Source: an uncultured Bacilli bacterium (GTDB lineage: Bacteria; Bacillota_I; Bacilli_A; RF39; UBA660). Taken from it: DNA of 64,000 bases. Numbering within the stretch: the first letter of the stretch is position 1; each line of letters begins with the position of its first letter. The position numbers and the translations under genes were made by a program. Where the stretch lies: contig CAKPLN010000001.1 of the NCBI GenBank assembly GCA_934167665.1, positions 341,331 to 405,330 on the forward strand. The letters run 5' to 3'. The notes below the pieces were generated by a model that saw only the letters and a list, made by a program, of their open reading frames with translations, searched no databases and was not told where the DNA came from. This document shows, piece by piece, positions 1,449 through 29,290 of this stretch.

Positions 1449-1976
1449 CTAAACTTTTGGTCCTAACCAATTTTGAAACTTATCAGTTAAATTATCAAGC
1501 TGACTAGTACCAATAACTACATACTCATCAGTTAAATACATATCATCTAAAGGTATAGGATTACATCCTTCTCCATCATCACTTAAATCATTTAACTCAT
1601 CTATAGAAAACATACTACCACAATTTTGACATTGTAATTTATCACCTACTTATACAAAATAAGCATAAGGAGCCCCACTACAGCTTTGACAAGTATTAAC
1701 AACCACTACAATCTCACCCCTAGAACCTTTAAGTGCAACAAGTCCTACCTGTACATCATCAAGTGCATAATTTACATACAAAGCTCAATCTGTAATATAA
1801 TTTTTCTTTATTAAAACCTTGCCATCATCAACTAAAGCTTCAATAACCTTCCCATTAATATTTTTTAAATTAGCAGGTCTATTACCATTATTAGTATTAT
1901 TAACCTCGCTACCACAACCACTAAACAAGAACAAACTAAATACAAGTATAAATATAATTTTATAATACTTCTTCAT
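1449..1976 (-). pseudogene. Lipoprotein with a 4-Cys (CxxC...CxxC) DUF2318-like domain, interrupted by an in-frame TGA (1785-1787) and an in-frame TAA
   Basis: ORF 1785-1976 encodes a signal peptide plus a lipobox Cys (FSGCGS). The same frame continues past the TGA as ALYVNYALDD...NTCQSCSGAPYAYFV[TAA]VGDKLQCQNCGSMF...GPKV. Confidence 0.5.
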
Positions 1977-1978
1977 AT

Positions 1979-2209
1979 TTATTTTTCCTCAAATGAAATA
2001 ACAGAATAATCAAGATCTTTAATTTTTGAAGAAATTAAATCTTTATCAACCTCATCATTATAGAAAACAGTAGCACTTTTATCTTTTAAATCAACACTGA
2101 CCTTTACAACATTATTAATACCAAGTAAAGTGCTTTTAACTTTTTCAGCGCAATGATTACACATCATCCCTTCAATATAAACTTTAAGTTTTTTATTTTT
2201 ATTAAACAT
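1979..2209 (-). CDS. copZ: Copper chaperone CopZ (HMA domain, MxCxxC)
   Basis: GMMCNHCAEKVKSTL metal-binding motif. It lies immediately downstream of copA. Confidence 0.8.
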   Translation of the reverse strand: MFNKNKKLKVYIEGMMCNHCAEKVKSTLLGINNVVKVSVDLKDKSATVFYNDEVDKDLISSKIKDLDYSVISFEEK

Positions 2210-2210
2210 A

Positions 2211-4394
2211 TTATCTTCTCCTCCATTTCTTTAATCTTAAAGCATTTAAAACAACCGTTAAACTAGATAATGTCATAGTTCCACCAGCAATCATAGGATT
2301 AATTTCTATACCTAACCCCCTAAATAACCCCATAGCTATTGGTACCATACAAGCATTATAGAAAAATGCCCAAAATAAATTTTGTTTTATATTCTTAATT
2401 GTTTTAAAACTAATATCCAATAAATTAGGAATATCACTCAAATTATTTCTCAATAAAATAACACTTGCTGAATTAAAAGCAATATCCGTACCATTCTTTA
2501 AACTAACTCCAATATCAGCCAGTGCCAAACTAGGAGCATCATTTATACCATCACCAATCATCATAACTTTCTTAGTCTTTTTCAAATCTCTTATAACATC
2601 AGCCTTTTCTTTAGGTAAAACATTAGCAATAACTTTACTGATTCCAACATTAGAAGCAATAATAGAAGCTGTCTTATCATTATCACCCGTTAACATAATC
2701 ACCTCTTTACCCATACCTTTAAGTTCCTCTATAGCAAGCTTTGCTTCATCTCTAACCACATCTTTTACCCCTGCCATTGCCAAAACTTCTTTATTTTTAA
2801 ACAAATAGACAATACTGCACCCATCTTCTTGTAATTTCCTCTCATCATCTACATATTGATTAGAAACTTCAAGCATTGAAAATATCTTATTATTACCAAC
2901 TAAATATTTTTCATTATCAACATAACCACTTAAACCTACCCCTTCAATATTTTTATAATCCTTAACTTTTAAGTTCTTATATTTGCCCTTAAAAGCACTA
3001 GCAATAGGATGAGAAGAATTACTTTCTAAAGAAGAAATAATATTTAAAACCTCTTTTTCAGAAAGTTCACCATAATTAAATAATTTACTAACTTTAAGTG
3101 TCCCATATGTCAAAGTACCAGTTTTATCAAAAACAATAGTATCAACTTTATGAGCATTTTCTAACGTCTCACTATTTTTAACTAAAATACCATTAGTAGC
3201 ACAAACGCCTTCACTTATAACGATTGCTAAAGGTGTTGCTAAACCAAGCGCACATGGGCAAGCAACAACCAACACGCTTACAAAAGAAACAAAAGCTTCC
3301 TTAACTTCAAAGCCTAAGATTAAATATCCCAAAAAAGTAACTACTGAAATAGCTATTATTACCGGTACAAAAATACCACAAACTCTATCAGCCACTCTAG
3401 ATATTGGAGCTTTAGTATTAGTTGCCTCAACTACCAATCTAACAATTTCTGAGACAGTTGAATCTTTCCCAATCTTTTCAGCACGATAAGATAAAACTCC
3501 ATCAATATTTATTGAACCAGCTACTACCTTACTAGAAATCATCTTTTTAACAGGGCTTGATTCCCCACTTATAAAAGATTCATCAACATAACTTTCACCA
3601 TCAACAACCTCTCCATCAACAGCAATCCTCATTCCCGGCTTAATAACTAAAATATCTCCTTGTTTAACCATATCCAAAGATATAGCTTTAATACTATCAC
3701 CATTTTTAATATAAGCTTCCTTAGGTGTAATAGACACTAATCCCTTAATAGCTTCCTTAGTTTTTTCTTTATTTATATCATCAATAAATCTACCCAATTT
3801 AACTAAATACAAAATTATACAGATACTTTCAAAATATAAATTATCAACTGCCATATTATTACCTGAAAAGATCAAGATCATATTATAAAAACTATATCCA
3901 AAACTAAAAATTACTCCTAATGTTACTAAAGAATCCATATTAGGTTCCCTATGAAATAAATTTTTAATACCACTTTTTATTATATCATTACCAAAAAATA
4001 TAAAATATATAACGAACAAGCATAAACATACAGAATAATTAATTGGATAGGAAGCCATATTTAAAAATGGTATACTAGGAAGTCCAATCATATGAGACAT
4101 AGATATATATAAAACAAAAAAAGCTATCAATCCATTAAAAATATAATATGTTTTATTACTATCTTTACTATCATCATCCTCGACATATAGTCCCATAGAT
4201 TTAAATCCTGCTTCTTTTACAAAACGATTTAAATCATCAACTGTAAGAAAATCTTCATACTCAATACTAGCTGTTGCCATTACTAAGTTAACTAAGGCAT
4301 CATTTATACCCTTCTGCTTCTTTAAATATTTCTCCAATCCAGAAGAACAAGCACTACATGTCATACCTTCAATTTTTAAAATTATTTTATTCAT
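2211..4394 (-). CDS. copA: Copper-translocating P1B-type ATPase
   Basis: N-terminal HMA (GMTCSACSSG), a CPC motif (VVACPCALGLATP), DKTGTLT phosphorylation site, and GDGINDAP. Confidence 0.9.
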   Translation of the reverse strand: MNKIILKIEGMTCSACSSGLEKYLKKQKGINDALVNLVMATASIEYEDFLTVDDLNRFVKEAGFKSMGLYVEDDDSKDSNKTYYIFNGLIAFFVLYISMSHMIGLPSIPFLNMASYPINYSVCLCLFVIYFIFFGNDIIKSGIKNLFHREPNMDSLVTLGVIFSFGYSFYNMILIFSGNNMAVDNLYFESICIILYLVKLGRFIDDINKEKTKEAIKGLVSITPKEAYIKNGDSIKAISLDMVKQGDILVIKPGMRIAVDGEVVDGESYVDESFISGESSPVKKMISSKVVAGSINIDGVLSYRAEKIGKDSTVSEIVRLVVEATNTKAPISRVADRVCGIFVPVIIAISVVTFLGYLILGFEVKEAFVSFVSVLVVACPCALGLATPLAIVISEGVCATNGILVKNSETLENAHKVDTIVFDKTGTLTYGTLKVSKLFNYGELSEKEVLNIISSLESNSSHPIASAFKGKYKNLKVKDYKNIEGVGLSGYVDNEKYLVGNNKIFSMLEVSNQYVDDERKLQEDGCSIVYLFKNKEVLAMAGVKDVVRDEAKLAIEELKGMGKEVIMLTGDNDKTASIIASNVGISKVIANVLPKEKADVIRDLKKTKKVMMIGDGINDAPSLALADIGVSLKNGTDIAFNSASVILLRNNLSDIPNLLDISFKTIKNIKQNLFWAFFYNACMVPIAMGLFRGLGIEINPMIAGGTMTLSSLTVVLNALRLKKWRRR

Positions 4395-4559
4395 ACCATC
4401 ACCTCGAAATAAGATTTATTATCTATTACCTTAATAGTATTTTGTATCATATTCATCCAACAATTCATAGAAAATGTCCCAACTTCATTAGGCATAAATT
4501 CAATTACATTTTCCCCTTCAACAAGCTTATGCTTAATATTATATTCTTCCATAAAGATT

Positions 4560-5654
4560 TCAATTACATCCAGTTAAATACATCTTATCAACCTCTACTA
4601 TTAATTTTGTTTTAATTCCTTTTTGAATAACAATATTATCATAGCTATCATAAGCTAAAGAAATTTTAACCTCTTGATAATCATCATAAATTGTTGAGGC
4701 CACATAGTCACTATAATCATTAGAACTATTAATATTTACGCCTATTGTTCCAAAACATCTAAATAACATATTAAAAGATAAAATTATAATGAGTACAGTA
4801 GCTACTTTATTAAAAACTACTCTCATCCTTCCACTAAAATAGTTAAATATAGTACCAACAAAAAACATAAGTGGAGCCGTACCCAAAGCAAATAACCCCA
4901 TAGCTAAAAAGCCTGATATAAAAGATCCTGTACCTAAAGCATAAATTTAATGGTCAACACGGCATTAAACCATTTATTAATCCAATAATAAAGGGAATGC
5001 TACTTTTAGTTTTATAACCTTTAAATCTAGGTATTTTTAATCTAATAATTTCCATCATTTTTAAAGCCATTAAAAGCATAAAGATAGAAGCTATAATCAT
5101 AACAATTCCATTTACCATATAATTAATTGAAATAACACTTCCAATTAAACCAACTATCCACTAATGACACTATAGGAGATAACTCGCCCTAAATTATAAA
5201 AAAAGGGCCTTTCAAATTTCTCACTTCTATCAGTACTATAACACACTAACAAATTAATAGCACCACATATGCTAATACAATGAATACTAGTTAATACACC
5301 TATTAAAAAGAGCATTCCATAAGTTGTATTACTGTCAATTGTTGGAATAGCATTGAATATATTAAAACCAAATAGTTTATGTAACCCATAACCTAACAAT
5401 AAAATAAAAAGAAAAATAAGAACAAATTGAACTAATCACAATCCAAACTTCAATTGTTTTTTATCAGTTGCGATTAAATTAGAATTCGTAATATAGCCTA
5501 AATCATTTATAGAATCAATTATTTTAGAAACATCAATTTCATCACAACATTCAATACAAGCTATATTTCCATCAACAAATGCCTTCTCAACTCCATCAAG
5601 CTTTAATAATTCTAAAATAATTTTTTTACGACAATGAATTAATATTATTTTCAA
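4560..5654 (-). pseudogene. HMA-like domain fused to a DsbD_2/CcdA-like membrane protein, disrupted by an in-frame TGA (5436-5438), a TAG (5154-5156) and a frameshift near 4950
   Basis: ORFs 5436-5654, 5154-5399 and 4560-4901 join in one frame across the TGA (...KQLKFGL[TGA]LVQFVLIFLF...). An LMPC / ALGTGS motif pair is split between two frames. Confidence 0.45.
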
Positions 5655-5777
5655 TATAATATTTTATAATTCCATCCCCCGTAACGCGCTCTAGACTTTT
5701 TCTGGAATATTCTCGCTCAACAATATGATGCTTTTTTCTTAATATCTTTTTAAAATTATACATATTATTAAGTTCAT

Positions 5778-6014
5778 TTATCTTCTAATCTTTAAACTGA
5801 TCCTAGAAACCTCATCATCCTGTTTTCTAATAATAGTTTTTATAATCAAAAAATAAACAATTATTGGCAACAAGAAAAACACAACACTAATCTCTTGAAT
5901 CATTTTATTAGTAAGTGAAGTTAAAAGAAGAATCCTATATGCTAAATAATAACTAGCATAACACGCCAATCCAATAAGTACTGCTTTTTGCCATTTTTTC
6001 ATAACAATAAACAC
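5778..6014 (-). CDS. Small membrane protein (2 TM), hypothetical
   Basis: ORF with two hydrophobic helices. It is the last gene of a three-gene minus-strand unit. Confidence 0.3.
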   Translation of the reverse strand: MFIVMKKWQKAVLIGLACYASYYLAYRILLLTSLTNKMIQEISVVFFLLPIIVYFLIIKTIIRKQDDEVSRISLKIRR

Positions 6015-6022
6015 CTCTACTA

Positions 6023-6415
6023 TTAATTAAATCTTTTACCAGTAGCCTTAACACAGTCAGCAACGCTTTTAAGTGAATCAGCTAATTTAAGAGCTTCTTC
6101 TGTTTGCATTTCAGCGGTACCATTTTTAGCCAAATCATCTATTTTATTATTTACTATCTTATTAGCTGTTTTAGTAGCCTGCCAAATAACACCCAACACT
6201 GCTTCATCAACACCAATCACAGGATCTGGAACAACCAAATCTATAACAAACGCAACAAGCGACACAGTCTTGGCTGCACTTAAAATCTTATTTGTTGTCT
6301 CTAAACTTGCAATTTTCAAAGCCGTTTGATCAGTCATTTCTGCATTATTATATTTTTCTTTAATTTTATTAATTACCTCTTTCTTTTCAGGTACTATTAC
6401 CGTTTTTCTAGCCAT
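6023..6415 (-). CDS. Hypothetical protein
   Basis: 130 aa ORF. It overlaps the upstream gene by 8 nt, which suggests translational coupling. Confidence 0.35.
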   Translation of the reverse strand: MARKTVIVPEKKEVINKIKEKYNNAEMTDQTALKIASLETTNKILSAAKTVSLVAFVIDLVVPDPVIGVDEAVLGVIWQATKTANKIVNNKIDDLAKNGTAEMQTEEALKLADSLKSVADCVKATGKRFN

Positions 6416-6707
6416 TATTCTTTCCTCCTATTTGATTTGCAATTTCATTATAAAATGCCACTACTAAATCAACTTCCTCTTCCAAAATATCTAAAACCTT
6501 AACTTTACCATCTTCTCTTACAACTTCTCCTAATAAAACAGCTCCATTTTCATTATCAGGATTATCATTAACCAAAGAATACATAGCATATTCTTTATTT
6601 AAAGCCTCAACTCTAAAAGCCCCTAAAATTGAAACCATTATAGTATCACCGTTTTCACTAACTATTTTATAACCTTCACTCATTAATATCACCCTTCTGT
6701 ACATCAT
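6408..6707 (-). CDS. DUF1292-like small acidic protein
   Basis: About 100 aa with ...IMVSILGAFRVEALNKEYAMYSL...VLLGEVVREDGKVKVLDILEEE..., the pattern typical of DUF1292. Confidence 0.4.
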   Translation of the reverse strand: MMYRRVILMSEGYKIVSENGDTIMVSILGAFRVEALNKEYAMYSLVNDNPDNENGAVLLGEVVREDGKVKVLDILEEEVDLVVAFYNEIANQIGGKNNG

Positions 6708-6812
6708 AACTAGTAATATAGCCTATATACACTATACCATATAACAATTATAAAGAAAATATTTATAACATTTTAACACAGTAAAATAATATTACCTTAT
6801 AAATTTTCTTAG

Positions 6813-6841
6813 TTGAAATAAATATACTAAATTTATATAAT
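6813..6841 (+). promoter_or_regulatory. Sigma-A-type promoter: TTGAAA, 17 nt spacer, TATAAT
   Basis: -35 at 6813-6818, a 17 nt spacer, -10 at 6836-6841, then AGAGGTG as the ribosome-binding site and an ATG at 6864. Confidence 0.55.
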
Positions 6842-6863
6842 TATACTAGAGGTGTTAAAAATT

Positions 6864-7856
6864 ATGGAAGAATTTATAAAGAAAGTCTATTCAAAGACTC
6901 TACTAATTACAGGAATTATTATTTGTTCTATTGGTATCTTATTTGGGGGATTATTTTATTTAGCTTTAAGCACTCAAGAAGCTATATATTTAGATAAAGT
7001 AACAGATGAATTTACTTATAGTAAAGTTGACGTTGATTTACTTGATGATTATTTTGCTACTCAAAAATTAGATACTAAAATTTTAAAATACTACTTAGCC
7101 TACGATAATCAAGATAAACCATACGTAGTAGTTCTTGATGATGTTAATTACAATTTATTAAAAGATATTCAAGACTACTCTTTCGGTCTTACAGATACTA
7201 AACCAAAAACTTTAACTATTTATGGTCAATCTAAAAAAATCGAAGATGAAGCCTATGAACTACTAAAAGATTACTTAAGTGATGATGAATACACTTATAG
7301 TATAACGCAAATTAAAAATGCCGTTGGTACCTACTATTTAGACACATATTATAGTCCAGAAGAAGATACTAATTTCATTCTTATATTTAGTGGAACCATC
7401 ATTACAATAGGATTAATACTTATAATTATTTATATTGTTAGAATTAAAAAAAGTAAAAAACTAATGGAAAAGTACAGTGATAAAATAGAAAGAGTTATTA
7501 ATGATGTTAATAATGGCAAAGGTATTTATAATAAAACATGTAAAGTATTCTTAACTAATGACTATATTATAAGTTACGGAGCCGGATTAAATGTTATTGA
7601 AACTAAAGACTTATTATGGATTTATCAATTCACAATGAGACAAAACGGCATATCTACAAATAAAATACTATATGGTGTTAATAAATTAGGAAAAAGTACA
7701 ACCATTACAACTATAAATGGTATGAGTAAAAAACAAAATAAGGCATTAGATGAATTATATCAAGACATTATAAATATGCTACCTGATATCTTATATGGTT
7801 ATAGTAAAGAAAATAAAGATAAAATTAAAGAACTAACCAGAAAAAATAATCTATAG
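6864..7856 (+). CDS. Membrane protein (TM, extracytoplasmic domain, TM, cytoplasmic domain), hypothetical
   Basis: The ORF track starts at 6852 (GTG). The ATG at 6864 (MEEFIKK) has the better ribosome-binding site. Confidence 0.5.
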   Translation: MEEFIKKVYSKTLLITGIIICSIGILFGGLFYLALSTQEAIYLDKVTDEFTYSKVDVDLLDDYFATQKLDTKILKYYLAYDNQDKPYVVVLDDVNYNLLKDIQDYSFGLTDTKPKTLTIYGQSKKIEDEAYELLKDYLSDDEYTYSITQIKNAVGTYYLDTYYSPEEDTNFILIFSGTIITIGLILIIIYIVRIKKSKKLMEKYSDKIERVINDVNNGKGIYNKTCKVFLTNDYIISYGAGLNVIETKDLLWIYQFTMRQNGISTNKILYGVNKLGKSTTITTINGMSKKQNKALDELYQDIINMLPDILYGYSKENKDKIKELTRKNNL

Positions 7857-7865
7857 AAAAAAGGA

Positions 7866-7896
7866 AGATAAATTTATCTTCCTTTTACATTACTTA
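7866..7896. terminator. Bidirectional rho-independent terminator
   Basis: Hairpin GGAAGATAAATTTATCTTCC flanked by an A-run and a T-run, between convergent genes. Confidence 0.6.
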
Positions 7897-8605: not shown

Positions 8606-8611
8606 AATAAA

Positions 8612-15622: not shown

Positions 15623-16164
15623 TAAGTCTAACTCCTTTAAATTAATAAAATTATACCATATATCAATCGTTTTCTAAAGAACTATCTATCTGAAAAAAAT
15701 ATAAAAAGAATATGATAAAATGAATAATATAAGGAGATGTTAATATAAGTAAGGAAAAATCTTTTTATATTGATAAGCCTTTATTACAAAGAATAGTTTT
15801 ATTTTTAACTGGTTTTAGTAATTTTCTAATAGGTTATGCCCCATATTTTATATTTAAAGATGATAAATCAAAAGACTATCAAATAGAGTTTGTTTAAAAA
15901 GGTGCAGCTTTTGGTTTAGCATTTACCATAATTGGACTATTCCTTGGTTTAATTTCATCAATTTTATAAAATTAAATTAATCAATCACAAAAAATCTCGT
16001 TTAACTTATAAAAAGAAATGAGGTTTTTTTAATATTTTAAATAAACAAAATGATATAATAGAAACTGAAAGACAAATAGTAATTTGTAATTTAGTTCTCT
16101 CTTAATAGATTTGTATTAATAATTAAGAGGATAAAAAAATAATATTTTGTGTTAAATAGTAAAG

Positions 16165-16195
16165 TTGTTTACATTTTTAAAATGTAAAATATATT
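16165..16195 (+). promoter_or_regulatory. Promoter with an overlapping 20 bp palindrome (TTTACATTTT-AAAATGTAAA), a likely autoregulatory operator of the XRE gene
   Basis: TTGTTTACATTTTTAAAATGTAAAATATAT lies upstream of 16250. The palindrome arms are a perfect 10/10 match. Confidence 0.45.
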
Positions 16196-16249
16196 TGATA
16201 GTAAAATAATAATAAAAAATGTATAGTTTTTTGTGAGAGGAGAAAGATT

Positions 16250-16657
16250 ATGGATTTAGGCAAAAAAATTATTGAAATGAGAAAAAAAGCAAAACTTTCA
16301 CAAGAACAACTTGCAGAAAAACTAGATGTTACCAGACAAACTATATCTAATTGGGAAAATGGCAAATTTTATCCTGATATTGATGCATTAGTTAAAATTA
16401 GTAAATGTTTTAATATTTCGTTAGATGACTTACTAAGTTACGATAATAAAGTTTTGCAATATTTAAAAGATAGCACAGATGTTGTAAAAAGTAATAAGAA
16501 ATTGCTTTATGCGATTTTATTAAATATTCTAATTATTATTCTATTTATAATAATAGGAATAACTGCAAATGAAAGTATTTCAATTATAGTAATAGTATTT
16601 ACTATTTCTATTATTAGTTTTTCTTATTTATTTTATCAAATCATAAAAAAAATATAG
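16250..16657 (+). CDS. Membrane-tethered XRE-family regulator (HTH plus 2 C-terminal TM)
   Basis: HTH_XRE (LSQEQLAEKLDVTRQTISNWENG) followed by a hydrophobic C-terminus. Confidence 0.7.
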   Translation: MDLGKKIIEMRKKAKLSQEQLAEKLDVTRQTISNWENGKFYPDIDALVKISKCFNISLDDLLSYDNKVLQYLKDSTDVVKSNKKLLYAILLNILIIILFIIIGITANESISIIVIVFTISIISFSYLFYQIIKKI

Positions 16658-16666
16658 GAGGAAATT

Positions 16667-16990
16667 ATGAATTATATTTTATTAGCAATATTTATAGCAA
16701 TATATCTAATAGGTTTAGTTGCTACAATTTATCAAGTTTATAAAATAACTGTTATAGATTCAAAAGCAAGAGGAATTAGCCATCCAAAATTAATGGGATT
16801 ACTAGCAACCAGTGGTAAAAGTTCAGAAGGAATTATTCTTTATCTATTGCATAGAAGAAAATATCCAATAAAAAATATTTCGAAAGAAGAACAAAATGAA
16901 ATAGAAAGAAGAAAGAAAATTGTATTAGTAGGAATTATATTTATGATTATTGGTGCAATTGGATTTGTATTCTTTATAGTAAAAATATAA
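16667..16990 (+). CDS. Small 2-TM membrane protein, PLDc_N-like (putative)
   Basis: Strong ribosome-binding site AGGAGG 8 nt upstream of the start, 9 nt after the XRE stop. The loop HPKLMGLLATSGKSSEGIILYLLHRRKY resembles the PLDc_N motif. Confidence 0.35.
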   Translation: MNYILLAIFIAIYLIGLVATIYQVYKITVIDSKARGISHPKLMGLLATSGKSSEGIILYLLHRRKYPIKNISKEEQNEIERRKKIVLVGIIFMIIGAIGFVFFIVKI

Positions 16991-17025
16991 TCATATATAA
17001 TATTAAAAAATTGCAATTAATCGTC

Positions 17026-17055
17026 GAGATCAACTTTAATAGTTGGTCTTTTTTA
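17026..17055 (+). terminator. Rho-independent terminator of the XRE operon
   Basis: AGATCAAC-N7-GTTGGTCT followed by TTTTTT. Confidence 0.5.
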
Positions 17056-17109
17056 CTTTTTATAAATAGGATGATTTTATATATAAATATTAATATATGT
17101 AAAAAAGCA

Positions 17110-17217
17110 GAATAAGAAACTTGTGCAACTACACTAAACTTTTCCTTATTTCATAAGGGTTTAGTGTTACACAAGACTGATTTCGTACCGTTGACGTAGA
17201 GGTCTACGACTTTTTTT
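17110..17217 (+). ncRNA. Candidate small RNA: long imperfect hairpin (17120-17175) followed by an intrinsic terminator (17195-17217)
   Basis: CTTGTGCAACTACACTAAAC ... GTTTAGTGTTACACAAG inverted repeat, then ACGTAGAGGTCTACG plus T7. No ORF in the segment. An AT-rich stretch that could hold a -10 lies upstream. Confidence 0.25.
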
Positions 17218-17325
17218 CGGCAATAACAATTCATATGAATCAATCTATATAAATATTATCATAAAAAATTAAAGACTTTTATAAAAATTTATTGTATAAT
17301 TATAATTGAAAGGAGTAAGCTTAAT

Positions 17326-17559
17326 ATGGAAAAAGATAATAATAATGTAGTAAGATTTTTGTTAACATTCTTTTTAGGATGGATTGGTAGTATAATTATT
17401 AATCATACTAATTTAAAACCTGCAGGATATAGAAGTAGAACTGCAGCATATTTTTTCCTTACAATTGTTACTTTTGGAATTTATGGTCTTGTTGCTAGTA
17501 TTTGCAACTTAACATTTGATCCAAACAAATCTAGTAACATTGGATATGTTAAGGAATAA
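17326..17559 (+). CDS. TM2-domain-like small membrane protein
   Basis: Strong ribosome-binding site AGGAG. VRFLLTFFLGWIGSIIINHTNL...YFFLTIVTFGIYGLVASI resembles the TM2 domain. Confidence 0.4.
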   Translation: MEKDNNNVVRFLLTFFLGWIGSIIINHTNLKPAGYRSRTAAYFFLTIVTFGIYGLVASICNLTFDPNKSSNIGYVKE

Positions 17560-17573
17560 TCTTATATTTAACT

Positions 17574-17598
17574 ATGAGGATATTATTCCTCTTTTTTT
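17574..17598. terminator. Bidirectional terminator
   Basis: GAGGA-TATTATT-CCTC followed by T7. Confidence 0.5.
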
Positions 17599-17602
17599 AT
17601 AA

Positions 17603-18249
17603 TTAAAAATCATCGTCTTTTGATTTAGAATCTCTATCTATTTCTGCAGATCTATTTTTAGTTTCTAATATACCTCTTATTTGTTCTTCATCTAAAATAT
17701 TCTTACCATATAATTCATAAGCAACTGGATAATATTTATCACGTTTTTCTTTATTACCCCACATTTTATCTACAAAGAAGTGATATAGATTGTTAATTTT
17801 ATTTTTATATTTTATAGATATTGTTAATCGTTACCAATAACTTTTATATTTATCTTCATAAATGTTATTATGTAAAGAAAAATCTGAATACATTCTACCT
17901 GAAATACCGCTACCACTTAAATAAACTTCAAAGGAAATGTTTTACCAATAAATTGTTTACCAAAATCATAATAATATGGTGTAGGTATTCCACTACCAGA
18001 TGTTGATTTTCCAAACACTCTTAAAATATCTTCATCTGTTAATTCTTTTTCTAAAATTATTTTTGTATTTCCAAATTTTCGTTTTGAATACAACATCTCA
18101 AAAATGTCTAAAATACTAGATTTTCCAATATTATTTTTTCCTATAATTACATTTATAGGTTTTATATTATTTATACATCCAGATTTAAAACATTTATAAT
18201 CTTCAAATTTAATACATTTTATATCCATACTAAACGCTCCTTCCAACAA
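17603..18249 (-). pseudogene. Remnant of an AAA/OLD-like (AAA_21-type) ATPase
   Basis: Intact N-terminal 110 aa with Walker A (IGKNNIGKSSILD) and the typical first strand (MDIKCIKFEDYKCF). It then continues in two other frames to 17603 with stops. There is no Walker B or nuclease part. Confidence 0.5.
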
Positions 18250-18356
18250 ATTTTTTAAGTATTATAACTTTATTTTGCCGTTTGTTTATTCATAATAATT
18301 CATTATTTTTATGTTATAATTAATATAGTTTTAGTTCTTAAGGAAAGAGGTACTAT

Positions 18357-18815
18357 ATGCATTTTTATGAATTAATTAAAAAATTAACTGAAGATAAAAA
18401 AACAATTATCTATGTTGATATGGACGGTGTAATTGCTTCTTATGATTTTGGAAAGCCACTTGATTTTAAAAATAAAAGACCTTTAACTACAAATATTAAA
18501 ACATTAAGTAAATTAAGCAATCTAAAAAATGTTGAACTACATATATTATCAGTTTGTAGATTTAATAATGAGGTAAATGAAAAAAATGAATGGTTAAATA
18601 AATATGCCCCATTTTTTGAAAAAGATAAAAGGACTATTATTCCAAAAGAAAGTTATCCGCATTATTCATCAAAAGAATTAAAATTAAATTATTTAAAATC
18701 ATTAAAAAATGATGAACAAATTATTTTTATTGATGATGACAATGAAGTTTTGAGAACTGTTCGTAATGGTTTGAAAAACATAATGTTATATCAAGATTCT
18801 GAATTAATAGATTAG
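18357..18815 (+). CDS. HAD-superfamily 5'(3')-deoxyribonucleotidase-like protein
   Basis: HAD motif I (IIYVDMDGVIAS) and a C-terminal FIDDD motif, an NT5C-like pattern. Confidence 0.55.
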   Translation: MHFYELIKKLTEDKKTIIYVDMDGVIASYDFGKPLDFKNKRPLTTNIKTLSKLSNLKNVELHILSVCRFNNEVNEKNEWLNKYAPFFEKDKRTIIPKESYPHYSSKELKLNYLKSLKNDEQIIFIDDDNEVLRTVRNGLKNIMLYQDSELID

Positions 18816-18830
18816 AAGAGAGAAATATAT

Positions 18831-19289
18831 ATGTTAAGTTATGAAGGAATATTTTTTGAAGCAGATATGGTTGATTTGATACATTCTTTAGAATCAGAAA
18901 AATTAGCCAGAGTTAATGATGAAATACATTGTACTTTTAAATATCATCCAACAACTGATGAAATTTTCAATGATATAGTTGGAAGAACATTTGAAGTATA
19001 TTTAATAGGTTATGGTAATGATGGGCAAAACAGTGGATTTGAAATATTATTTCCAGATGAATTAAAAGATTATTATATAAATTATGATGAACAAAATCCT
19101 ACAGTCTTAAAGACACCTCATATTACTGCATCACTAGCTGAAGGAGCAAAAGCATCAAATACAAAAAATCTTAATTTTAAACCCTTAGAAAAACCTGTTA
19201 AGTTAGTAGGAAGATTTGGTTATTGGATTAAAGGTGAGAATGAAGAATACTTATCTTATGAACCATATTCTAAAGGTAAAACAAGATAA
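18831..19289 (+). CDS. 2H phosphoesterase superfamily-like protein (LigT/YjcG-like), putative
   Basis: Two H-x-T-x motifs (HCTF near residue 33, HITA near residue 97) in a protein of about 150 aa. It is co-transcribed with the HAD gene (16 nt gap). Confidence 0.35.
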   Translation: MLSYEGIFFEADMVDLIHSLESEKLARVNDEIHCTFKYHPTTDEIFNDIVGRTFEVYLIGYGNDGQNSGFEILFPDELKDYYINYDEQNPTVLKTPHITASLAEGAKASNTKNLNFKPLEKPVKLVGRFGYWIKGENEEYLSYEPYSKGKTR

Positions 19290-19365
19290 TATTTTAATAC
19301 ACACGCTAATTGATTATGTCAATTTGCAAGTGCGTTTCTAAATTATCAAAATTTAGTATAAACAA

Positions 19366-19400
19366 AGAATACGACTAAGCAAAGTAGTCGTATTCTTTTT
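19366..19400. terminator. Strong rho-independent terminator (12 bp stem) after the HAD-2H operon
   Basis: AGAATACGACTA-agcaaag-TAGTCGTATTCT followed by TTTTT. Confidence 0.7.
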
Positions 19401-19606
19401 CTAGTATTTCTTCTTTAGACATATCTTTAAGAAATCTAAATCACTTATAAATATCATTTCATCTGCTACACAACTCTTAGAATCATCTACCATTTGATCA
19501 AATTCTCTATATCTATCTTGTCTAATAGTTTCCATTTTTTCGTCGTGTTCTTTTTTATATTCTTTAGTAATTTCATAAAACTTTTTCTATATTCAATATT
19601 TAATAA

Positions 19607-20152
19607 TTATATTTTATCTCCAATTTTATTAACTTCAATATTATCAATATAAGTACCAATTATTCTTTTCATTTCTTCTCTAGAAGCATTAATTAAATTT
19701 AAAATATTAGTTAAAAATATATCGGGATTAACAAAAGTATCAATTGTTTCTGTATCTTCTAAAATTAATAAATCATTAGTAGTAAAGTTAAGGTTTTCAC
19801 GTTGTTTAATTTCTTTAATCTTGTTATTAATGTTATCAATTTTATATCTAATACTTTTTAATTCGTTATCGAACTCATTCATTTTAACAACACCATTTAA
19901 GTAAGCACATTTAAATCTTTCTTCTTGGTTTTCATAGTCTTGGTTCATATAATCAATTACATGTGAAAAACAAGGTGTTGCTATATCATGAAAAAGCCCT
20001 GCTAATGTTGCTTTTTTATCTTTTGTTAATTTATAAACTATCAAACAAACTGTTAACGAATGATCATATCTACTTATATACTCTCTAAAATCATATATAT
20101 CTTTTGAAGCATCGTCCATTCCACAAAAATAACCAATATTTTTTAACCTCAA
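19607..20152 (-). CDS. HD-domain phosphohydrolase (YfbR-like 5'-deoxynucleotidase pattern)
   Basis: H...HD motif (DHSLTV ... GLFHDIATP). TTG start. A coding-like reading-frame continuation downstream (19420-19600) suggests a possible frameshift. Confidence 0.45.
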   Translation of the reverse strand: MRLKNIGYFCGMDDASKDIYDFREYISRYDHSLTVCLIVYKLTKDKKATLAGLFHDIATPCFSHVIDYMNQDYENQEERFKCAYLNGVVKMNEFDNELKSIRYKIDNINNKIKEIKQRENLNFTTNDLLILEDTETIDTFVNPDIFLTNILNLINASREEMKRIIGTYIDNIEVNKIGDKI

Positions 20153-21351: not shown

Positions 21352-21426
21352 TGGTGTTCAAGGCGGGAATCGAACCCACACCATTTCCTTCGGGGGGAAA
21401 TATTCTATCCATTAAAATACTTGAAC
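21352..21426 (-). tRNA. tRNA-Arg (anticodon CCG), with an unusual C at position 33
   Basis: Perfect GTTCAAG/CTTGAAC acceptor stem, TTTCC-CCCCGAA-GGAAA anticodon arm, GTGGG-TTCGATT-CCCGC T-arm, ACCA end. 75 nt. The D-stem is weak. Confidence 0.65.
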
Positions 21427-21436
21427 GAAAAAAGTG

Positions 21437-22556: not shown

Positions 22557-22577
22557 TTATCTAAATATTCTAAGAAA

Positions 22578-23399: not shown

Positions 23400-23427
23400 A
23401 ATATACTCACCATCTTTATAATATCAT

Positions 23428-23459
23428 AAAAATCAAAAGCTTTTTTCTAAAGAAAAAGC
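23428..23459 (-). terminator. Rho-independent terminator
   Basis: GCTTTTT-CTTTAG-AAAAAGC followed by a T-run on the minus strand. Confidence 0.5.
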
Positions 23460-23468
23460 CACTTGACA

Positions 23469-24110
23469 CTATTTACCACTATTTTTTAAATTTTCTCGCA
23501 TTAATTTTTCAACTTCTGCTTCTAACTTTTTATTAGCCTTTTCTAAATCATCATCAGCTTTAAATGGTTTCCCAAATCTAATCATTAAATTTTTACTTCG
23601 AAATTTATAATCACCAGTAATACCAAAAGGAACTAAATAAGAATCTGTCTTATTAGCCATAGAAACTGCTCCGTACTTAAATGGTAGTAAAAACTGTTCT
23701 GTTTTATTACGAGTTCCCTCTGGGAAAAGCCCCAATGCATAACCATTATTTAATACTTCTAAAGCCTTCTTTTTAGCATTCTCATCTTTCCTACTACGAT
23801 CAACAGGAATACATCCTACCATCTTAAAAAACCAAGCAAACTTGCCTTCGAAATATTCTTTCTTTGCCATATAATGAATAGGTCTCTTAGTCGCTATAAT
23901 AGCTAAACATTGATCAAATAAATGTTTATGATTACCAACAATAAGAATTGAACCCTCTTTAAGAATATTCTCTTTACCAATGATTGTTGGATTATAATAT
24001 AGTTTAAAAATTAATCCTAATACAGGTTTAAGAAATCTATACATATACATCTTATCTTTCTTCATTTTCACTATTTTTCTCACTTTCTTCTCGCAACTTT
24101 TTAAAATCAA
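23469..24110 (-). CDS. 1-acylglycerol-3-phosphate O-acyltransferase family (PlsC-like)
   Basis: NHKHLFD (the HxxxxD motif) and FPEGTR. Confidence 0.65.
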   Translation of the reverse strand: MILKSCEKKVRKIVKMKKDKMYMYRFLKPVLGLIFKLYYNPTIIGKENILKEGSILIVGNHKHLFDQCLAIIATKRPIHYMAKKEYFEGKFAWFFKMVGCIPVDRSRKDENAKKKALEVLNNGYALGLFPEGTRNKTEQFLLPFKYGAVSMANKTDSYLVPFGITGDYKFRSKNLMIRFGKPFKADDDLEKANKKLEAEVEKLMRENLKNSGK

Positions 24111-25788
24111 TTTTTCCTATAAGCGTTTTAGGTAAAGACTTTCTATATTCAAATTCATATGGTACCGAATAAGCTGCTAAATTCTTTTTACAATGTTCTT
24201 TAATACTATATTTAACAGTTAATGGATTATAGCCATTTTTAAGAACAATAAATGCCTTAGGTACTTCTACTTTATATGGATGTGGAATACCAACAACACT
24301 GCATTTTAAAACAGCTGGATGTTCTTCTATAACACTCTCAACATGATTAGGATATATATTATAACCACTACTAATTATCATTCTCTTAATTCTTTGACGA
24401 TAATAAATTATTCCCTCAGATGTCATCATTCCCATATCACCAGTATGAAGCCACAACGCTCCATCTTTATGTATTTGTAACATCTCATTAGTTTCTTTTT
24501 CATTATCCAAATATCCAAGCATAACAGTTGGACCACTAATACAAATTTCTCCGTCTGTTCCGTAAGGGACTTCATCTTGTGTACCAGGAGTAACTATTTT
24601 CATATAATTACCAGGAAAAGGAATACCAATACTTCCCTCACGATAAGCATCACCAAAAGATAAACAAACTGCTGCTAATGACTCTGTCATACCAAAACCT
24701 TGACTAATTTTAACCTTAGATCCATGATTACTTAGATACAAATTAACTTTTCTAATCAAACTATTAGATAATGAATCACCACCACTAATAACATATTTTA
24801 AATCACTAAGATCTAGACGATTATTATCAATATTAGTTAAAGCTTCAAATAAAGTAGGTACTCCGAAAATAACATTAGGTCGATATTTTTCAATCAATTT
24901 ATCAAACTTTCTTGAATTAAACTGTGGAATCATAATAACTTCACACCCTAAAACAAAAGGTGTATTAATAGAAACGCCTAAACCAAATCCATGAAACATT
25001 GGCATTATTCCCAAAACTCTGTCTCCAACATCAACATTCTTAAAAACAATTTTAGACTGCTCATTTAAAGCATTAAAAGCTCCATTAGATAACACAATTC
25101 CCTTAGGATTACCCGTAGTTCCACCACTATGCAATATTACTGCTACATCATCTCTACCAGTATCAACCTTATAGTCACTCAAATATGATGTTGACTTTCT
25201 CAAAAAATCTTTCCAATAAATATACTCTTCACTCTTCTTAGGCTTTTTAATCTTATACCCTTGAGTAAATTGATACCCTAGTCCTAAAAGAGATGGCATA
25301 GAATCTCTAGCAGAAACAACAATCGTCTTATAAACATCGGTTTCTCTAATTACATTTTTTACCTTTTCATAGCAAACATCTATCATAACCAACATAACAC
25401 TATGTGTAGAAACTAAATAATTCTTAATCTCTACTTCACTAGATAAAGGATGTATCATATTAGCAATAGCCCCTATTTTATTAATCGCATAAAAACTAAT
25501 AATCCCCTCTGGGGTATTAGGCATACAAATAGTTACAACGTCACCTTTTCTAATTCCAAAACTTCTAAAAGAACTTGCCGCTTTATCAATTTTACTTAAA
25601 AATTCCCTATAAGTAATATGTCTTCCAAAATAATTAATAGCGACATTCTCTCCGTTAGCAACAGCACTTCTTCTTACCATCTCATAAATAGAAACATCTT
25701 CTACTTTTATTTTCATTTCATTTTTTTTATAAAACTTTTTCCATGGTGTCTTTATCATCTTTTGTTTCAATATATCTAATACGTTCAT
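24052..25788 (-). CDS. AMP-dependent synthetase/ligase (acyl-CoA or acyl-ACP synthetase-like)
   Basis: AMP-binding motif ILHSGGTTGNPKGI and the typical adenylation C-terminal region. Confidence 0.8.
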   Translation of the reverse strand: MNVLDILKQKMIKTPWKKFYKKNEMKIKVEDVSIYEMVRRSAVANGENVAINYFGRHITYREFLSKIDKAASSFRSFGIRKGDVVTICMPNTPEGIISFYAINKIGAIANMIHPLSSEVEIKNYLVSTHSVMLVMIDVCYEKVKNVIRETDVYKTIVVSARDSMPSLLGLGYQFTQGYKIKKPKKSEEYIYWKDFLRKSTSYLSDYKVDTGRDDVAVILHSGGTTGNPKGIVLSNGAFNALNEQSKIVFKNVDVGDRVLGIMPMFHGFGLGVSINTPFVLGCEVIMIPQFNSRKFDKLIEKYRPNVIFGVPTLFEALTNIDNNRLDLSDLKYVISGGDSLSNSLIRKVNLYLSNHGSKVKISQGFGMTESLAAVCLSFGDAYREGSIGIPFPGNYMKIVTPGTQDEVPYGTDGEICISGPTVMLGYLDNEKETNEMLQIHKDGALWLHTGDMGMMTSEGIIYYRQRIKRMIISSGYNIYPNHVESVIEEHPAVLKCSVVGIPHPYKVEVPKAFIVLKNGYNPLTVKYSIKEHCKKNLAAYSVPYEFEYRKSLPKTLIGKIDFKKLREESEKNSENEER

Positions 25789-26362
25789 TATATTCCTCCA
25801 ATTTACTAGCTACAGACTTCATCAATTTTTTATTTTCACTATCTAAATCACTAGAAACTTTCATACCATTTAAAAACTCTATCTGAATGCGCCTTTTTCT
25901 AAAGCCAGCGTTGTACTTAGAAGTAATTACAAATGGCACTATAACACTTTTTGTCTCTTCAGCCATTTTAACAGCTCCTATTTTAAAAGGCATAACAATA
26001 TCTTTTGTTCTATTAATAGTACCTTCCGGAAATATTCCAATAACCTCACCCTTATTTAAAACTTCTACAGCACTAGTTAAAGCATTTTTATCATGAATTT
26101 TCCTATCTACTGGAATACACCCCATAAGTTTTACTACAGCACCAATTAAGCCCTTAAATAATTCAATTTTAGCTAAAAAATGAATAGGTCTATTAACTAA
26201 TGATATAAGTAATAAAGGATCTTTCCAATTAGTATGGTTTCCTGCTAAAACAACAGAACCATCCTTAGGAATATTTTCCCTTCCAATAATAATAGGACGA
26301 TATACAAGAAAAAAAATAGGCTTTAAAATAGTTTTACTAACTATATAAAATATATTCTTCAT
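25727..26362 (-). CDS. Second PlsC-like acyltransferase
   Basis: GNHTNWKDP and FPEGTINRTKD. Confidence 0.65.
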   Translation of the reverse strand: MKNIFYIVSKTILKPIFFLVYRPIIIGRENIPKDGSVVLAGNHTNWKDPLLLISLVNRPIHFLAKIELFKGLIGAVVKLMGCIPVDRKIHDKNALTSAVEVLNKGEVIGIFPEGTINRTKDIVMPFKIGAVKMAEETKSVIVPFVITSKYNAGFRKRRIQIEFLNGMKVSSDLDSENKKLMKSVASKLEEYNERIRYIETKDDKDTMEKVL

Positions 26363-26396
26363 ATCAATCTCCTATACTATTAATTTTACTACAAAC

Positions 26397-26427
26397 AAAA
26401 AAAATAGCAAATCTTTTGTTTTGCTAT
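26397..26427 (-). terminator. Rho-independent terminator after murI
   Basis: ATAGCAAA-hairpin-TTTGCTAT followed by T8. Confidence 0.5.
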
Positions 26428-26429
26428 AA

Positions 26430-27167
26430 TTATATTTCTTCATAAGTTGTATTATCTAACGAGTTATAAATAACTACTTTTCCAATACTATTACTATGAG
26501 ACAGTAAATTATGTAATTCCATTTGTCTTTTTACTTCTCTTGCTACACCATTAGCTCCATCAATTAAAGTAACATTCGGCATTTCTTCTAGTATCTCTTT
26601 CTTTATAAATGGATAATGTGTACAACCAAGTACTATTGAATCAATATCTTTATTTTTATAGTCTTTAAAAACTTCTTCTAAAATACGTTTGATTTCCCTT
26701 TTATCCTCTATTTCAATAGCATGAGCTAATCCATAACAACTAACTAAATAAATATTTTGGTAAGTTCTTTTATTATCTCTAACTAGTTCATTTATACGTT
26801 CAGACTCTATAGTTGCTGGAGTAGCCATCACAACTGTATTTTTAAAATCATGATCACACGCTACTTTAATAGCTGGAACAGTACCAATAAATATAGTATC
26901 GGGATACTCTTCACGAAGATACTTAATACATCTAGTAGTAGCAGTGTTACATGCAATTACTATAACACTACACCCTTCTTTTTTTAATCTCTCTACAATA
27001 GAAGAAGTAATTTTAAATAGTTCTTGATCACTTTTTTCACCATAGGGATTATTTAAACTATCACCATAATAAAAGATATCCTCATTAGGTAAAACTACTC
27101 TAATTTCCTGTAGAACACTTAAGCCACCCTTACCAGAATCAAAAACTCCAATTTTCATTATAAACAC
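26430..27167 (-). CDS. murI: Glutamate racemase
   Basis: VFDSGKGGLSV, CNTAT and GCTHYP motifs. Confidence 0.85.
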   Translation of the reverse strand: MFIMKIGVFDSGKGGLSVLQEIRVVLPNEDIFYYGDSLNNPYGEKSDQELFKITSSIVERLKKEGCSVIVIACNTATTRCIKYLREEYPDTIFIGTVPAIKVACDHDFKNTVVMATPATIESERINELVRDNKRTYQNIYLVSCYGLAHAIEIEDKREIKRILEEVFKDYKNKDIDSIVLGCTHYPFIKKEILEEMPNVTLIDGANGVAREVKRQMELHNLLSHSNSIGKVVIYNSLDNTTYEEI

Positions 27168-27201
27168 CCACTCTAAAATAAATTATTACAAATATAAAAC
27201 G

Positions 27202-27669
27202 CTAAGAAATTATCATCATTATCATTTCTTCTACCTTATCAATAATCATTCTTTTATTTTCTTCTCTACTCTCTCTATCAACTATCACAGTAGCATTATA
27301 ATACTTATTAACGTTTTTATCATAAACACTAATATAAACAGTATTATCATTACCAATAAGGTTATTTTTATCAACTCGTCCTAATTTACCTGTAACACCA
27401 ACTCCAAAATCACTATCAGCAAATAAACTAATATTACGACTCATCTCACAAGCTGTTTCCATACTATAAACACTATATTTATCTATAATATCTTTAGATA
27501 CTCCCATCTTAATTTTATATTCATTAGCATAAGTAACTGCACTATATTTTAAAACATCACTAGCTCCCTCAATATTTGTAATAGCATTAACAATACCACC
27601 GCCAGTACAAGACTCCATTGTTGCGATAGTCTTCTTTAATTCACTTAACTTAGACACTAAATCTTTCAT
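27202..27669 (-). CDS. CinA C-terminal domain / PncC-like nicotinamide-nucleotide amidohydrolase
   Basis: ATMESCTGGGIVNAIT motif. Confidence 0.65.
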   Translation of the reverse strand: MKDLVSKLSELKKTIATMESCTGGGIVNAITNIEGASDVLKYSAVTYANEYKIKMGVSKDIIDKYSVYSMETACEMSRNISLFADSDFGVGVTGKLGRVDKNNLIGNDNTVYISVYDKNVNKYYNATVIVDRESREENKRMIIDKVEEMIMMIIS

Positions 27670-27820
27670 AAAACATTCTCCTTAATTATTATGCTAATAT
27701 AACACAATATATCCAAAGTTTAATATAAGTTTATTATATCACTCATAGTAATTTTAACAAAGCAAATAAAAAAAGAAATACTATTACTAATATTTCTCAT
27801 AACTCTTATAAAGATTTAAA

Positions 27821-28300
27821 TTATTTTGTAGTAATAGTTGAATCTTTTTTAACGTAAGCAACTCCACTATCTTTATTATTACTGTTAGTCAATTGCTCTA
27901 CTGTTTGTGAAACAATATCTTCAATAGTAAAAGGAATACTTGGTTCAGGATTATTATAAGTACCAACAACTTCTGTTAAGAAAGGCTTTTCAAGTTCGCC
28001 TACTATCTTTTTATAACTAGGAAGTTTTATTAAATCCCTTACAGTGCCTAAATATTCACCTACTTTACCAATTCTCATGGCTCCAATTAAATATTGACTA
28101 GATTTTCCATCAATGAATGAACATAAAGCAACATCCATCATAAAACGACTATCTTTTTTAACCAAATCATAAAATTGCATACATTCATCAAAATTAACTA
28201 TTACTTTTCCATAGTAATACCACCAATGCATCAATAAAGTTGCTCTTTCCTCATCACTATATGAGTCAAATGTTTTAATATCCAATGTTTTAATATCCAT
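27821..28300 (-). CDS. Hypothetical protein
   Basis: Own strong promoter and a GAGGGGAG ribosome-binding site. No recognisable motif. Confidence 0.4.
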   Translation of the reverse strand: MDIKTLDIKTFDSYSDEERATLLMHWWYYYGKVIVNFDECMQFYDLVKKDSRFMMDVALCSFIDGKSSQYLIGAMRIGKVGEYLGTVRDLIKLPSYKKIVGELEKPFLTEVVGTYNNPEPSIPFTIEDIVSQTVEQLTNSNNKDSGVAYVKKDSTITTK

Positions 28301-28324
28301 AATAATCTCCCCTCAGCGGAAGAT

Positions 28325-28353
28325 ATTATAGCACACATCACCAATAAAAACAA
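28325..28353 (-). promoter_or_regulatory. Sigma-A-type promoter: TTGTTT, 17 nt spacer, TATAAT (minus strand)
   Basis: -35 at 28348-28353, -10 at 28325-28330, then GAGGGGAG and the ATG at 28300. Confidence 0.55.
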
Positions 28354-28396
28354 TACTATGTTATTTAAGGCCATCACGTTTACTTAATTTTCTGCT

Positions 28397-28651
28397 TTAT
28401 TTTTTAATATAGCTGATACCAGCAACACTATCTTGCCCCTGTTTAGATACAGCCTCTATTTCATCGATTACTGTTTTTATTTTATTATCTAATATTGCTG
28501 ATTGTCTATTTAACTCTAAAAGTTGTGCTTGAAGACTATCTATATGAGATACAGCATTTTCATCATCATTAACTTTTCTATCATAATAATCAGCAACAAT
28601 AAGTAATTTGTCAATACATAATCTCTTAAAAAAATCACTAACACCGTTCAT
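28397..28651 (-). CDS. Hypothetical small helical protein
   Basis: 84 aa with a predicted coiled-coil character. Confidence 0.3.
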   Translation of the reverse strand: MNGVSDFFKRLCIDKLLIVADYYDRKVNDDENAVSHIDSLQAQLLELNRQSAILDNKIKTVIDEIEAVSKQGQDSVAGISYIKK

Positions 28652-28713
28652 TGGAAAGCTCCAAACTTGTTTATCAAAAGGTAACTTTGCTTGTTCAATT
28701 AGCTCTCCTATCG

Positions 28714-29097
28714 TTACACTTCCATAAAGTAGTGCTTGTCTAGCAACAAGCCTAATTTACCAGTAATATATTCAACAGAAGAATTATTAAAATCAATTTT
28801 TGGATCTCTTCTTTTAAACTTACAACTTAAAACATTAACAAGACCACTAATTTCTAAACGCCTAGATTCACTAAATAAAATATCAAAATCACGGTTTTCA
28901 TAAGAAACAAATAATTGCTCTAAAGTAGTTATTCCTCTCTTTTCCAATAATTTTAATGTAGAATTAGGAACTAAATCAGCCAAATCAGATAATAAAATAT
29001 CACTAAAAGTAGAGTTATCATCATCTATATCACTAATTGATATATCTTCTTCATCAATAACGCAATCTTTATGACAACCCCTACCATTTGCCTTCAA
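28714..29097 (-). CDS. Hypothetical acidic protein; TTG start; probably the 3' part of a gene disrupted at a T5 homopolymer
   Basis: The frame opens inside upstream ORF X. The junction is at AGTACTTTTTATTGATGA (29123-29145). Confidence 0.35.
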   Translation of the reverse strand: MKANGRGCHKDCVIDEEDISISDIDDDNSTFSDILLSDLADLVPNSTLKLLEKRGITTLEQLFVSYENRDFDILFSESRRLEISGLVNVLSCKFKRRDPKIDFNNSSVEYITGKLGLLLDKHYFMEV

Positions 29098-29122
29098 ACA
29101 TTCCTTAACATAAGTAAGAAAC

Positions 29123-29290
29123 TTATCATCAATAAAAAGTACTAGTTGCTAAAGCCGAAGATCTATCTCTTATATAAAAACCCGTCTTATAAATCATCCC
29201 TGTTTTTCTATCCAAAATTTCAAAAACGGTACCATCTCTAAAATCAGCATCATTATAAGGTCATTCCAGCCAACTATATCTATTACTCAA
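29123..29290 (-). pseudogene. Small ORF X with an in-frame TGA (29261-29263), ending in the tandem stops TGA TGA TAA. Likely the 5' part of a decayed gene continuing into 28714-29097
   Basis: TTG after a GGAG ribosome-binding site, then MSNRYSWLE[TGA]PYNDADFRDGTVFEILDRKTGMIYKTGFYIRDRSSALATSTFY. Confidence 0.35.

Follow-up and report, generated by a model that had tools for sequence, protein, structure and literature searches.

Do three genes interrupted by TGA codons in the chromosome of an uncultured gut bacterium reflect a nonstandard reading of UGA, a particular mutational route to nonsense, or the ordinary loss of dispensable genes? The question arises from a 64,000-nucleotide stretch, here called the window, of an uncultured Bacilli bacterium in the RF39 lineage UBA660 (assembly GCA_934167665.1, contig CAKPLN010000001.1, positions 341,331 to 405,330 of the forward strand). 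A sequence-only reading had found that at three minus-strand loci, adjacent pieces of open reading frame (ORF) join in the same frame across a TGA at which Trp seemed plausible. It proposed gene decay by conversion of TGG to TGA under AT mutational pressure. We compared the three genes, which encode an FtrD-like lipoprotein, an HMA-DsbD_2 membrane protein, and a 507-amino-acid protein, with their orthologs in close relatives. Intact orthologs exist in sister strains, the window copies carry several disabling lesions, and most of the lesions are present in other assemblies, all of which bears out the view that these genes are decaying. The loci are very probably ordinary lineage-specific pseudogenes in the chromosome of a low-GC (~27-28% GC) gut Bacillota. 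The phenomenon is already known, and no unusual decoding is needed to account for it.

Disabling lesions at three loci

We recovered contigs of sister strains, designated by L numbers, using protein searches followed by exact-product look-ups. Look-ups with copA and with a 63-amino-acid N-terminal fragment returned no match; other fragments did match. The sister strains bearing intact orthologs are about 91-96% identical to the window at the nucleotide level. Identity is ~94-96% for L031-L034, ~94% for L026, and 98.5-99.4% for L027 and L028. For all three loci, an intact full-length ortholog lies at the same chromosomal position in close relatives. Individual sites were also compared with distant homologs of ~45-55% identity.

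The first locus (1449-1976, minus strand) is the last gene of a cop cluster and matches the FtrD-like lipoprotein family (PF10080, 4e-16). The pseudogene keeps its full length of 175 codons, with two premature stops. Its intact 175-amino-acid ortholog, P0125, is 91% identical and is found in L031-L034 (~94% nucleotide identity). The in-frame TGA at 1785-1787, which we confirmed, corresponds to CAA (Gln) in the intact ortholog. The DNA alignment reads GAT CAA GCT in L031 and L032 and GAT TGA GCT in the window, a difference that requires two base changes. In distant homologs the residue is K, D, N, E, or Q and never W. The extra in-frame TAA that had been reported for this gene is also present and maps to 1650-1652, where a C to T change altered a CAA (Gln) codon that is invariant across homologs.

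The same gene has been lost in other strains. It is absent from L027, L028, and L030, which carry a ~1149-bp deletion, and the distant relatives L014, L017, L019, and L020 have stops of their own within it: three TAA codons at Gln positions, one TAG at a Trp codon, and one TGA at a Cys codon. The CAA to TAA change at the 1650 Gln codon (YFV-Q-VG) is recurrent, as it appears again in L017 (~10199) and L020 (~10136).

The second locus (4391-5637, minus strand) encodes an HMA-DsbD_2 membrane protein (PF13386, 1e-34) that would be 433 amino acids long if intact; its start codon has been deleted. The C-terminal part of the protein contains a conserved GCN...CWMNM region, which we take to be cupredoxin-like. 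The intact 433-amino-acid gene is present in L030, L031, L033, and L034, and is split in L032. We confirmed the in-frame TGA at 5436-5438, which arose by a single C to T change in a CGA (Arg) codon (TTG CGA TTA in L030 versus TTG TGA TTA in the window, L027, and L028). Distant homologs mostly have L or I at this site. Further downstream, a 1-bp deletion at 5157/5158 (GGTGGAATA to AGTGG-ATA, within 5154-5158) brings a TAG at 5154-5156 into frame. Thus, the TAG that had been listed for this locus is present, but it is a product of the deletion rather than a primary lesion.

A second in-frame TGA (4954-4956; GLMPC-TGA-PL), missing from the earlier list, follows in the same gene. The intact ortholog has GGC (Gly) here, distant homologs have an invariant G, and two substitutions are required. 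Immediately after this codon, at 4948/4949, lies an 11-bp deletion, which is the real nature of what had been described as a 1-nt frameshift between the GLMPC and ALGTGS motifs. Near the end of the gene, a 2-bp deletion at 4562/4563 (AATAATGAA to AAT--TGAA, within 4560-4563) results in an apparent, out-of-frame TGA stop at 4560-4562.

Upstream of this gene is the remnant of an HNH-domain gene (5633-6002, minus strand), which encodes 342 amino acids in relatives and retains only its first ~123 codons in the window. The remnant has its own 1-bp deletion near 5786/5787 and ends at the junction (5633-5637) of a 1117-bp deletion. This deletion took csoR, the first ~14 codons of the HMA-DsbD_2 gene, and most of the HNH-domain gene.

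The third locus (28397-29290, minus strand) would encode 507 amino acids if intact, as judged by alignment to its ortholog P0001. The reconstructed window protein has no Pfam match, and the intact ortholog has only a faint match to DUF4116. P0001, which is 88% identical at the protein level, is found in L022-L025, with gene order conserved. The in-frame TGA at 29261-29263, likewise confirmed, derives by a single G to T change from GGA (Gly): the alignment reads TTA GAG GGA CCT in L022 and L023 and CTG GAA TGA CCT in the window, and L026 has GAG in place of the TGA. As automatic codon alignment misplaced the N terminus of this protein because of a 620-bp deletion, we read the original codon from a multi-sequence DNA alignment. 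The deletion, whose junction lies at 29131-29138 between two TTTTTATT direct repeats, is out of frame and removed ~210 codons. It had been interpreted as a slip at a T5 run. A further frameshift results from a 10-bp deletion at 28748-28749, in which TTCCACCTAC was lost.

Stepwise decay and the origin of the TGA codons

We determined which lesions recur in other assemblies using exact 31-46-nt probes that span them. Both stops of the FtrD-like gene are found in L035-L037, which are independent assemblies from different sequencing runs. L027, L028, L029, and L035 share the TGA at 5436. In the DNA alignment, L027 and L028 also have the HMA-DsbD_2 gene's TGA at 4954 together with its 1-bp and 11-bp deletions. 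At the third locus, L038 and L039 have the TGA at 29261, the 10-bp deletion, and the 620-bp deletion, of which L026 has only the last. No other assembly in the probe search carried the 2-bp deletion, the 1117-bp junction, or the 1-bp deletion in the HNH-domain gene.

One explanation for the interruptions is that they are sequencing or assembly errors, since the source is evidently a metagenome assembly and these last three lesions were found only in the window. However, the recurrence of the other lesions excludes sequencing error for the stops, and 60 neighboring genes are intact. We therefore regard error as a very improbable source of the lesions as a set.

The distribution of the lesions points to gene decay in steps. 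Each locus contains multiple independent disabling lesions, and all of the indels are deletions. The FtrD-like gene has just two stop codons, yet this is the gene that is deleted in L027, L028, and L030. As some lesions are shared with sister strains and others are private, they form a nested series. In the HMA-DsbD_2 gene, both TGA codons and the 1-bp and 11-bp deletions are the shared steps, and the 2-bp and 1117-bp deletions are the private ones; in the third locus, the 620-bp deletion is shared with L026 and the TGA and 10-bp deletion are not. Pairwise dN/dS ratios also separate the pseudogenes (0.25, 0.27, and 0.52) from their intact neighbors (0.04-0.23).

If the TGA codons shared a common origin at Trp codons, as had been proposed, the orthologs should have TGG at these sites. 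The proposal that AT pressure turned TGG into TGA in every case fits an AT-rich genome, and of the seven base changes inferred at the five stop codons, six are GC to AT. AT mutational pressure in general is thus compatible with the data. The specific route is not: TGG stands at none of the four sites in intact orthologs (CAA at 1785, CGA at 5436, GGC at 4954, and GGA at 29261), distant homologs lack Trp at these sites, and where Trp codons of the three genes escaped the deletions, all four remain TGG. Nor is this the favored path to nonsense. Since Trp codons are rare (74 of 17,864), TGG to TGA is a minor route, contributing 3.5% of the paths to TGA under uniform mutation rates and ~15% under an illustrative AT-biased spectrum of our own choosing. 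We find a TGG origin for all of the TGA codons scarcely credible. The alignments identify the TGA codons as unrelated substitutions at Gln, Arg, and Gly codons, with no special TGG-to-TGA signature. There is also a methodological lesson, in that a Trp that looks plausible from local context is no evidence; close intact orthologs settle the original codon.

We propose that four dispensable genes have lost function, namely the two accessory genes that flank copA and copZ, the HNH-domain gene, and the gene for the 507-amino-acid protein with the faint DUF4116 match, and that csoR was lost altogether. Inactivation came about through point nonsense mutations combined with small deletions (1, 1, 2, 10, and 11 bp) and two larger deletions (620 and 1117 bp) between short direct repeats. 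Since two of the TGA codons need two changes from the ortholog codon, part of the changes presumably followed the death of the gene. The genes presumably became dispensable, with selection on them relaxed; active selection for their loss is less likely.

Bacterial pseudogene formation with a deletional bias has been described in host-associated bacteria undergoing genome reduction. The window resembles such cases in its nonsense changes, in small deletions that shift the frame and larger ones between short direct repeats, in the absence of indels other than deletions, in the stepwise accumulation across sister strains, and in the mostly GC to AT changes at stop sites. It differs in nothing essential, but its density of pseudogenes is modest, at ~4 of ~65 genes. 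It thus offers a small, clean case of stepwise gene loss in a species complex of uncultured gut Bacilli.

Several observations weigh against this account. The dN/dS ratios of the pseudogenes are all below 1, which is expected if inactivation was recent but makes the comparison a soft test. L038 and L039, the assemblies that share the TGA at 29261, match the window at 100% identity and could have been assembled from the same reads. The three lesions found only in the window could still be assembly artefacts. Finally, TGA makes up four of the five primary in-frame stops. Nonsense-mutation expectations computed from the window's own codon usage assign TGA 23-26% of single-step nonsense mutations, and the nominal probability of the observed share is about 0.01-0.03, a post hoc figure from a tiny sample. 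We do not find the excess convincing because it was calculated post hoc, one dead gene accounts for two of the TGA codons, and two of the codons differ from the intact ortholog by two substitutions. When only single-step events are counted, two of three are TGA (P about 0.15), and when the lesions of the relatives are added, no TGA excess is left.

The base composition of the window is strongly asymmetric. Almost all genes lie on the minus strand, and the GC skew of the plus strand is very strong, at -0.3 to -0.4 in 4-kb windows. On the coding (minus) strand, G is therefore about twice as frequent as C, and this skew may bias which stop codons appear in dead genes.

UGA as a stop codon

The remaining explanation for in-frame TGA codons is that the genes are functional and that this bacterium decodes UGA, whether into Trp (code 4), Gly (code 25), or selenocysteine or through programmed readthrough. 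Two features are in keeping with this idea, in that TGA is uncommon as a stop and the intact orthologs have Gly at two of the four TGA sites, both of which are in dead genes. The 60 intact genes of the window end in TAA (38), TAG (18), and TGA (4). The earlier statement that intact genes stop in TAA or TAG therefore fails for the four with TGA stops, at 30675, 41475, 42569, and 57763. One of these, a response-regulator gene, has its TGA one residue past the match to a complete Trans_reg_C domain model.

The intact genes also show how TGA and TGG are used. No internal TGA occurs among their 17,864 codons, and Trp is encoded by the 74 TGG codons, in agreement with the earlier observation that intact genes use TGG for Trp. 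A search for TGA at conserved Trp or Gly positions (tables 4 and 25) found none in the 60 genes. With UGA ending genes and never interrupting them, the view that genome-wide recoding is unlikely holds.

Decoding of UGA would in any case not rescue the genes, because they also have frameshifts and deletions of hundreds of bases; loci with such lesions are beyond repair by any reading of UGA. The four sites match three different amino acids in the orthologs, none of them Cys or selenocysteine. Scans of the window and of 15 related loci turned up no tRNA(UCA), and Rfam matched no element except two tRNAs. Selenocysteine insertion thus has neither a suitable residue (the orthologs have Gln, Arg, Gly, and Gly) nor a non-tRNA Rfam element to recommend it. 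In a screen of more than 250,000 genomes, UGA was a stop in the RF39 gut Bacilli examined, which had once been mislabelled as using code 4 (PMC8629427). Taken together, these data leave decoding of UGA as a vanishingly unlikely explanation.

Comparison with lineages that do reassign UGA leads to the same place. Like the Mycoplasmatales, Entomoplasmatales, and several insect endosymbionts that use table 4, the window has a low GC content, is related to the Bacilli/Mollicutes radiation, and has TGA as its rarest stop. In contrast to them, it has no TGA site aligned with Trp, no TGA inside an intact gene, and genes that stop with TGA at conserved C termini. The alignment of two TGA sites with Gly recalls the Gracilibacteria and Absconditabacteria, which use table 25, but the other two sites are Gln and Arg, in frameshifted genes, and again no intact gene has an internal TGA. 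Moreover, the labels given to the relatives of the window are Bacilli or Bacillota rather than Candidate Phyla Radiation. The appropriate annotation of the ORF fragments is therefore as pseudogenes, read with the standard bacterial code (table 11).

When we reread the ORFs of the window with TGA as a sense codon, the only merged frames beyond the three loci lay antisense to a plus-strand gene of 1543 amino acids. We rejected these TGA-interrupted antisense frames as candidates for recoding and attribute them to composition, since TAA and TAG are scarce on this T/G-rich strand. The skew leaves a 1124-codon antisense frame broken only by TGA, which could mislead searches for TGA recoding. The 1543-amino-acid ORF (35423-40054) lies on the opposite strand to all of its neighbors. 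Residues 24-406 form a T2SSE/PilB-type secretion ATPase (PF00437, 4e-119), and the ~1,100 residues that follow are repetitive, T/K/P/V-rich, and of low complexity, with no Pfam match.

Reassignments of the arginine codons AGG to Met and CGG to Trp have been reported in uncultured Bacilli of the order RFN20 (PMC8629427). A shallow check gave no evidence for either in the window: AGG aligns with Arg in homologs of the HMA-DsbD_2 protein, and CGG accounts for only 4 of the 17,864 codons, at uninformative positions. The window does contain a tRNA(CCG) (21352-21426, minus strand) that, parsed by hand, has C at anticodon-loop position 33 instead of the near-universal U. With A20 and A73, it appears Arg-like.

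The copper operon and the surrounding window

Two of the pseudogenes flank an intact pair of genes, copZ (1979-2209) and copA (2211-4394), on the minus strand (1979-4394 together; HMA, E1-E2_ATPase, and Hydrolase domains). The intact locus, as seen in L031, consists of csoR, the HMA-DsbD_2 gene, copA, copZ, and the FtrD-like gene, in that order. The whole cluster is present in L031-L034, with the HMA-DsbD_2 gene split in L032, and the intact HMA-DsbD_2 ortholog terminates in GTATGA, overlapping the ATG of copA. The locus of the relatives has the makeup of the csoR-copA-copZ copper-resistance operons of Firmicutes. The window differs in keeping only copA and copZ, its repressor and both accessory genes being deleted or dead. 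With csoR gone, copA and copZ may now be transcribed without CsoR control.

Could the loss of the accessory genes and csoR be adaptive, for example by changing how copper is handled in the gut? Different lesions have repeatedly disabled the same two accessory genes, both among sister strains and among distant relatives. Meanwhile, copA and copZ remain under purifying selection, with dN/dS values of 0.11-0.14 relative to L031. A dead allele may also be spreading. When L032 (6286-7586) is compared with L031, the differences are confined to a cluster of ~20 changes over ~190 bp. Within it, L032 has the window-type pseudogene allele, including the 1-bp deletion and the neighboring substitutions, which is the cause of its split HMA-DsbD_2 gene. 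The patch suggests that a short tract acquired by recombination brought the disabling lesion into a gene that was intact elsewhere.

Repeated loss is, however, equally expected of genes that are merely dispensable, and intact alleles persist in the same host population, in the Hadza samples of L030, L031, and L033. Adaptive loss therefore seems to us unlikely, though less so than the other alternatives considered here. If it is true, the repeated inactivation of the FtrD-like and HMA-DsbD_2 genes, together with the loss of csoR in the window, would amount to a selected rewiring of copper handling. Under neutral decay of dispensable genes, which we favor, these loci would illustrate gene loss through point stops and short-repeat deletions in a host population where intact alleles are still in circulation.

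Outside the three loci, Pfam annotation describes an ordinary chromosomal segment of a walled Bacillota. Annotated genes include sigA, dnaG, lepA, ftsK, efp, a PBP transpeptidase, pseudopilins, a two-component system, and ABC transporters, in addition to copA and copZ. The nearest species-level relatives, which we found through the FtrD-like protein, are all metagenome-assembled, and most are labelled uncultured Bacilli or Bacillota. They come from human (Hadza) gut or from ruminant gut or rumen; one is represented by a 1.26-Mb contig and another by a 1.53-Mb chromosome.

The sequence-only reading had also seen in the decay a hint of a host-restricted or genome-reducing lifestyle. The gut and rumen origin of the relatives and the reduced genomes reported for uncultured gut Bacilli such as RF39 (PMC6784871) make this plausible, but the hint is weak. 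Intact ORFs cover 84% of the window, and pseudogenes account for only ~4 of roughly 65 genes, which points to slow, ordinary gene loss and not to a burst of decay. This is far from the massive decay of recently host-restricted pathogens.

Other parts of the window also vary among strains. Adjoining the FtrD-like pseudogene is a gene with no Pfam match (497-1387, minus strand) that is intact in the window. It has a ~668-bp internal deletion in L031-L034 (L031 10590-10809), and the ~1149-bp deletion that removed the FtrD-like gene cuts its ortholog in L027 (12450-12749), L028, and L030. At the same position, L035-L037 contain two adjoining genes for 266 and 268 amino acids (L035 6308-7926), possibly a tandem pair. 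The varied state of this gene indicates that each strain has its own set of losses.

A low-GC (23%) stretch at 16000-20000 lacks the strong GC skew seen across the rest of the window. It contains plus-strand genes for HTH regulators and a 110-amino-acid N-terminal fragment of an AAA_15 ATPase (17917-18249), which is followed by ~900 bp without a sizeable ORF. This stretch is probably an acquired island with another decayed gene. Finally, at 7860-7891, the window lacks ~2.8 kb that is present in the sister strains L030-L034 (L030 2558-5367; L031 140-2949). As this segment contains a DDE_Tnp_1 transposase gene, the species complex includes an insertion sequence.

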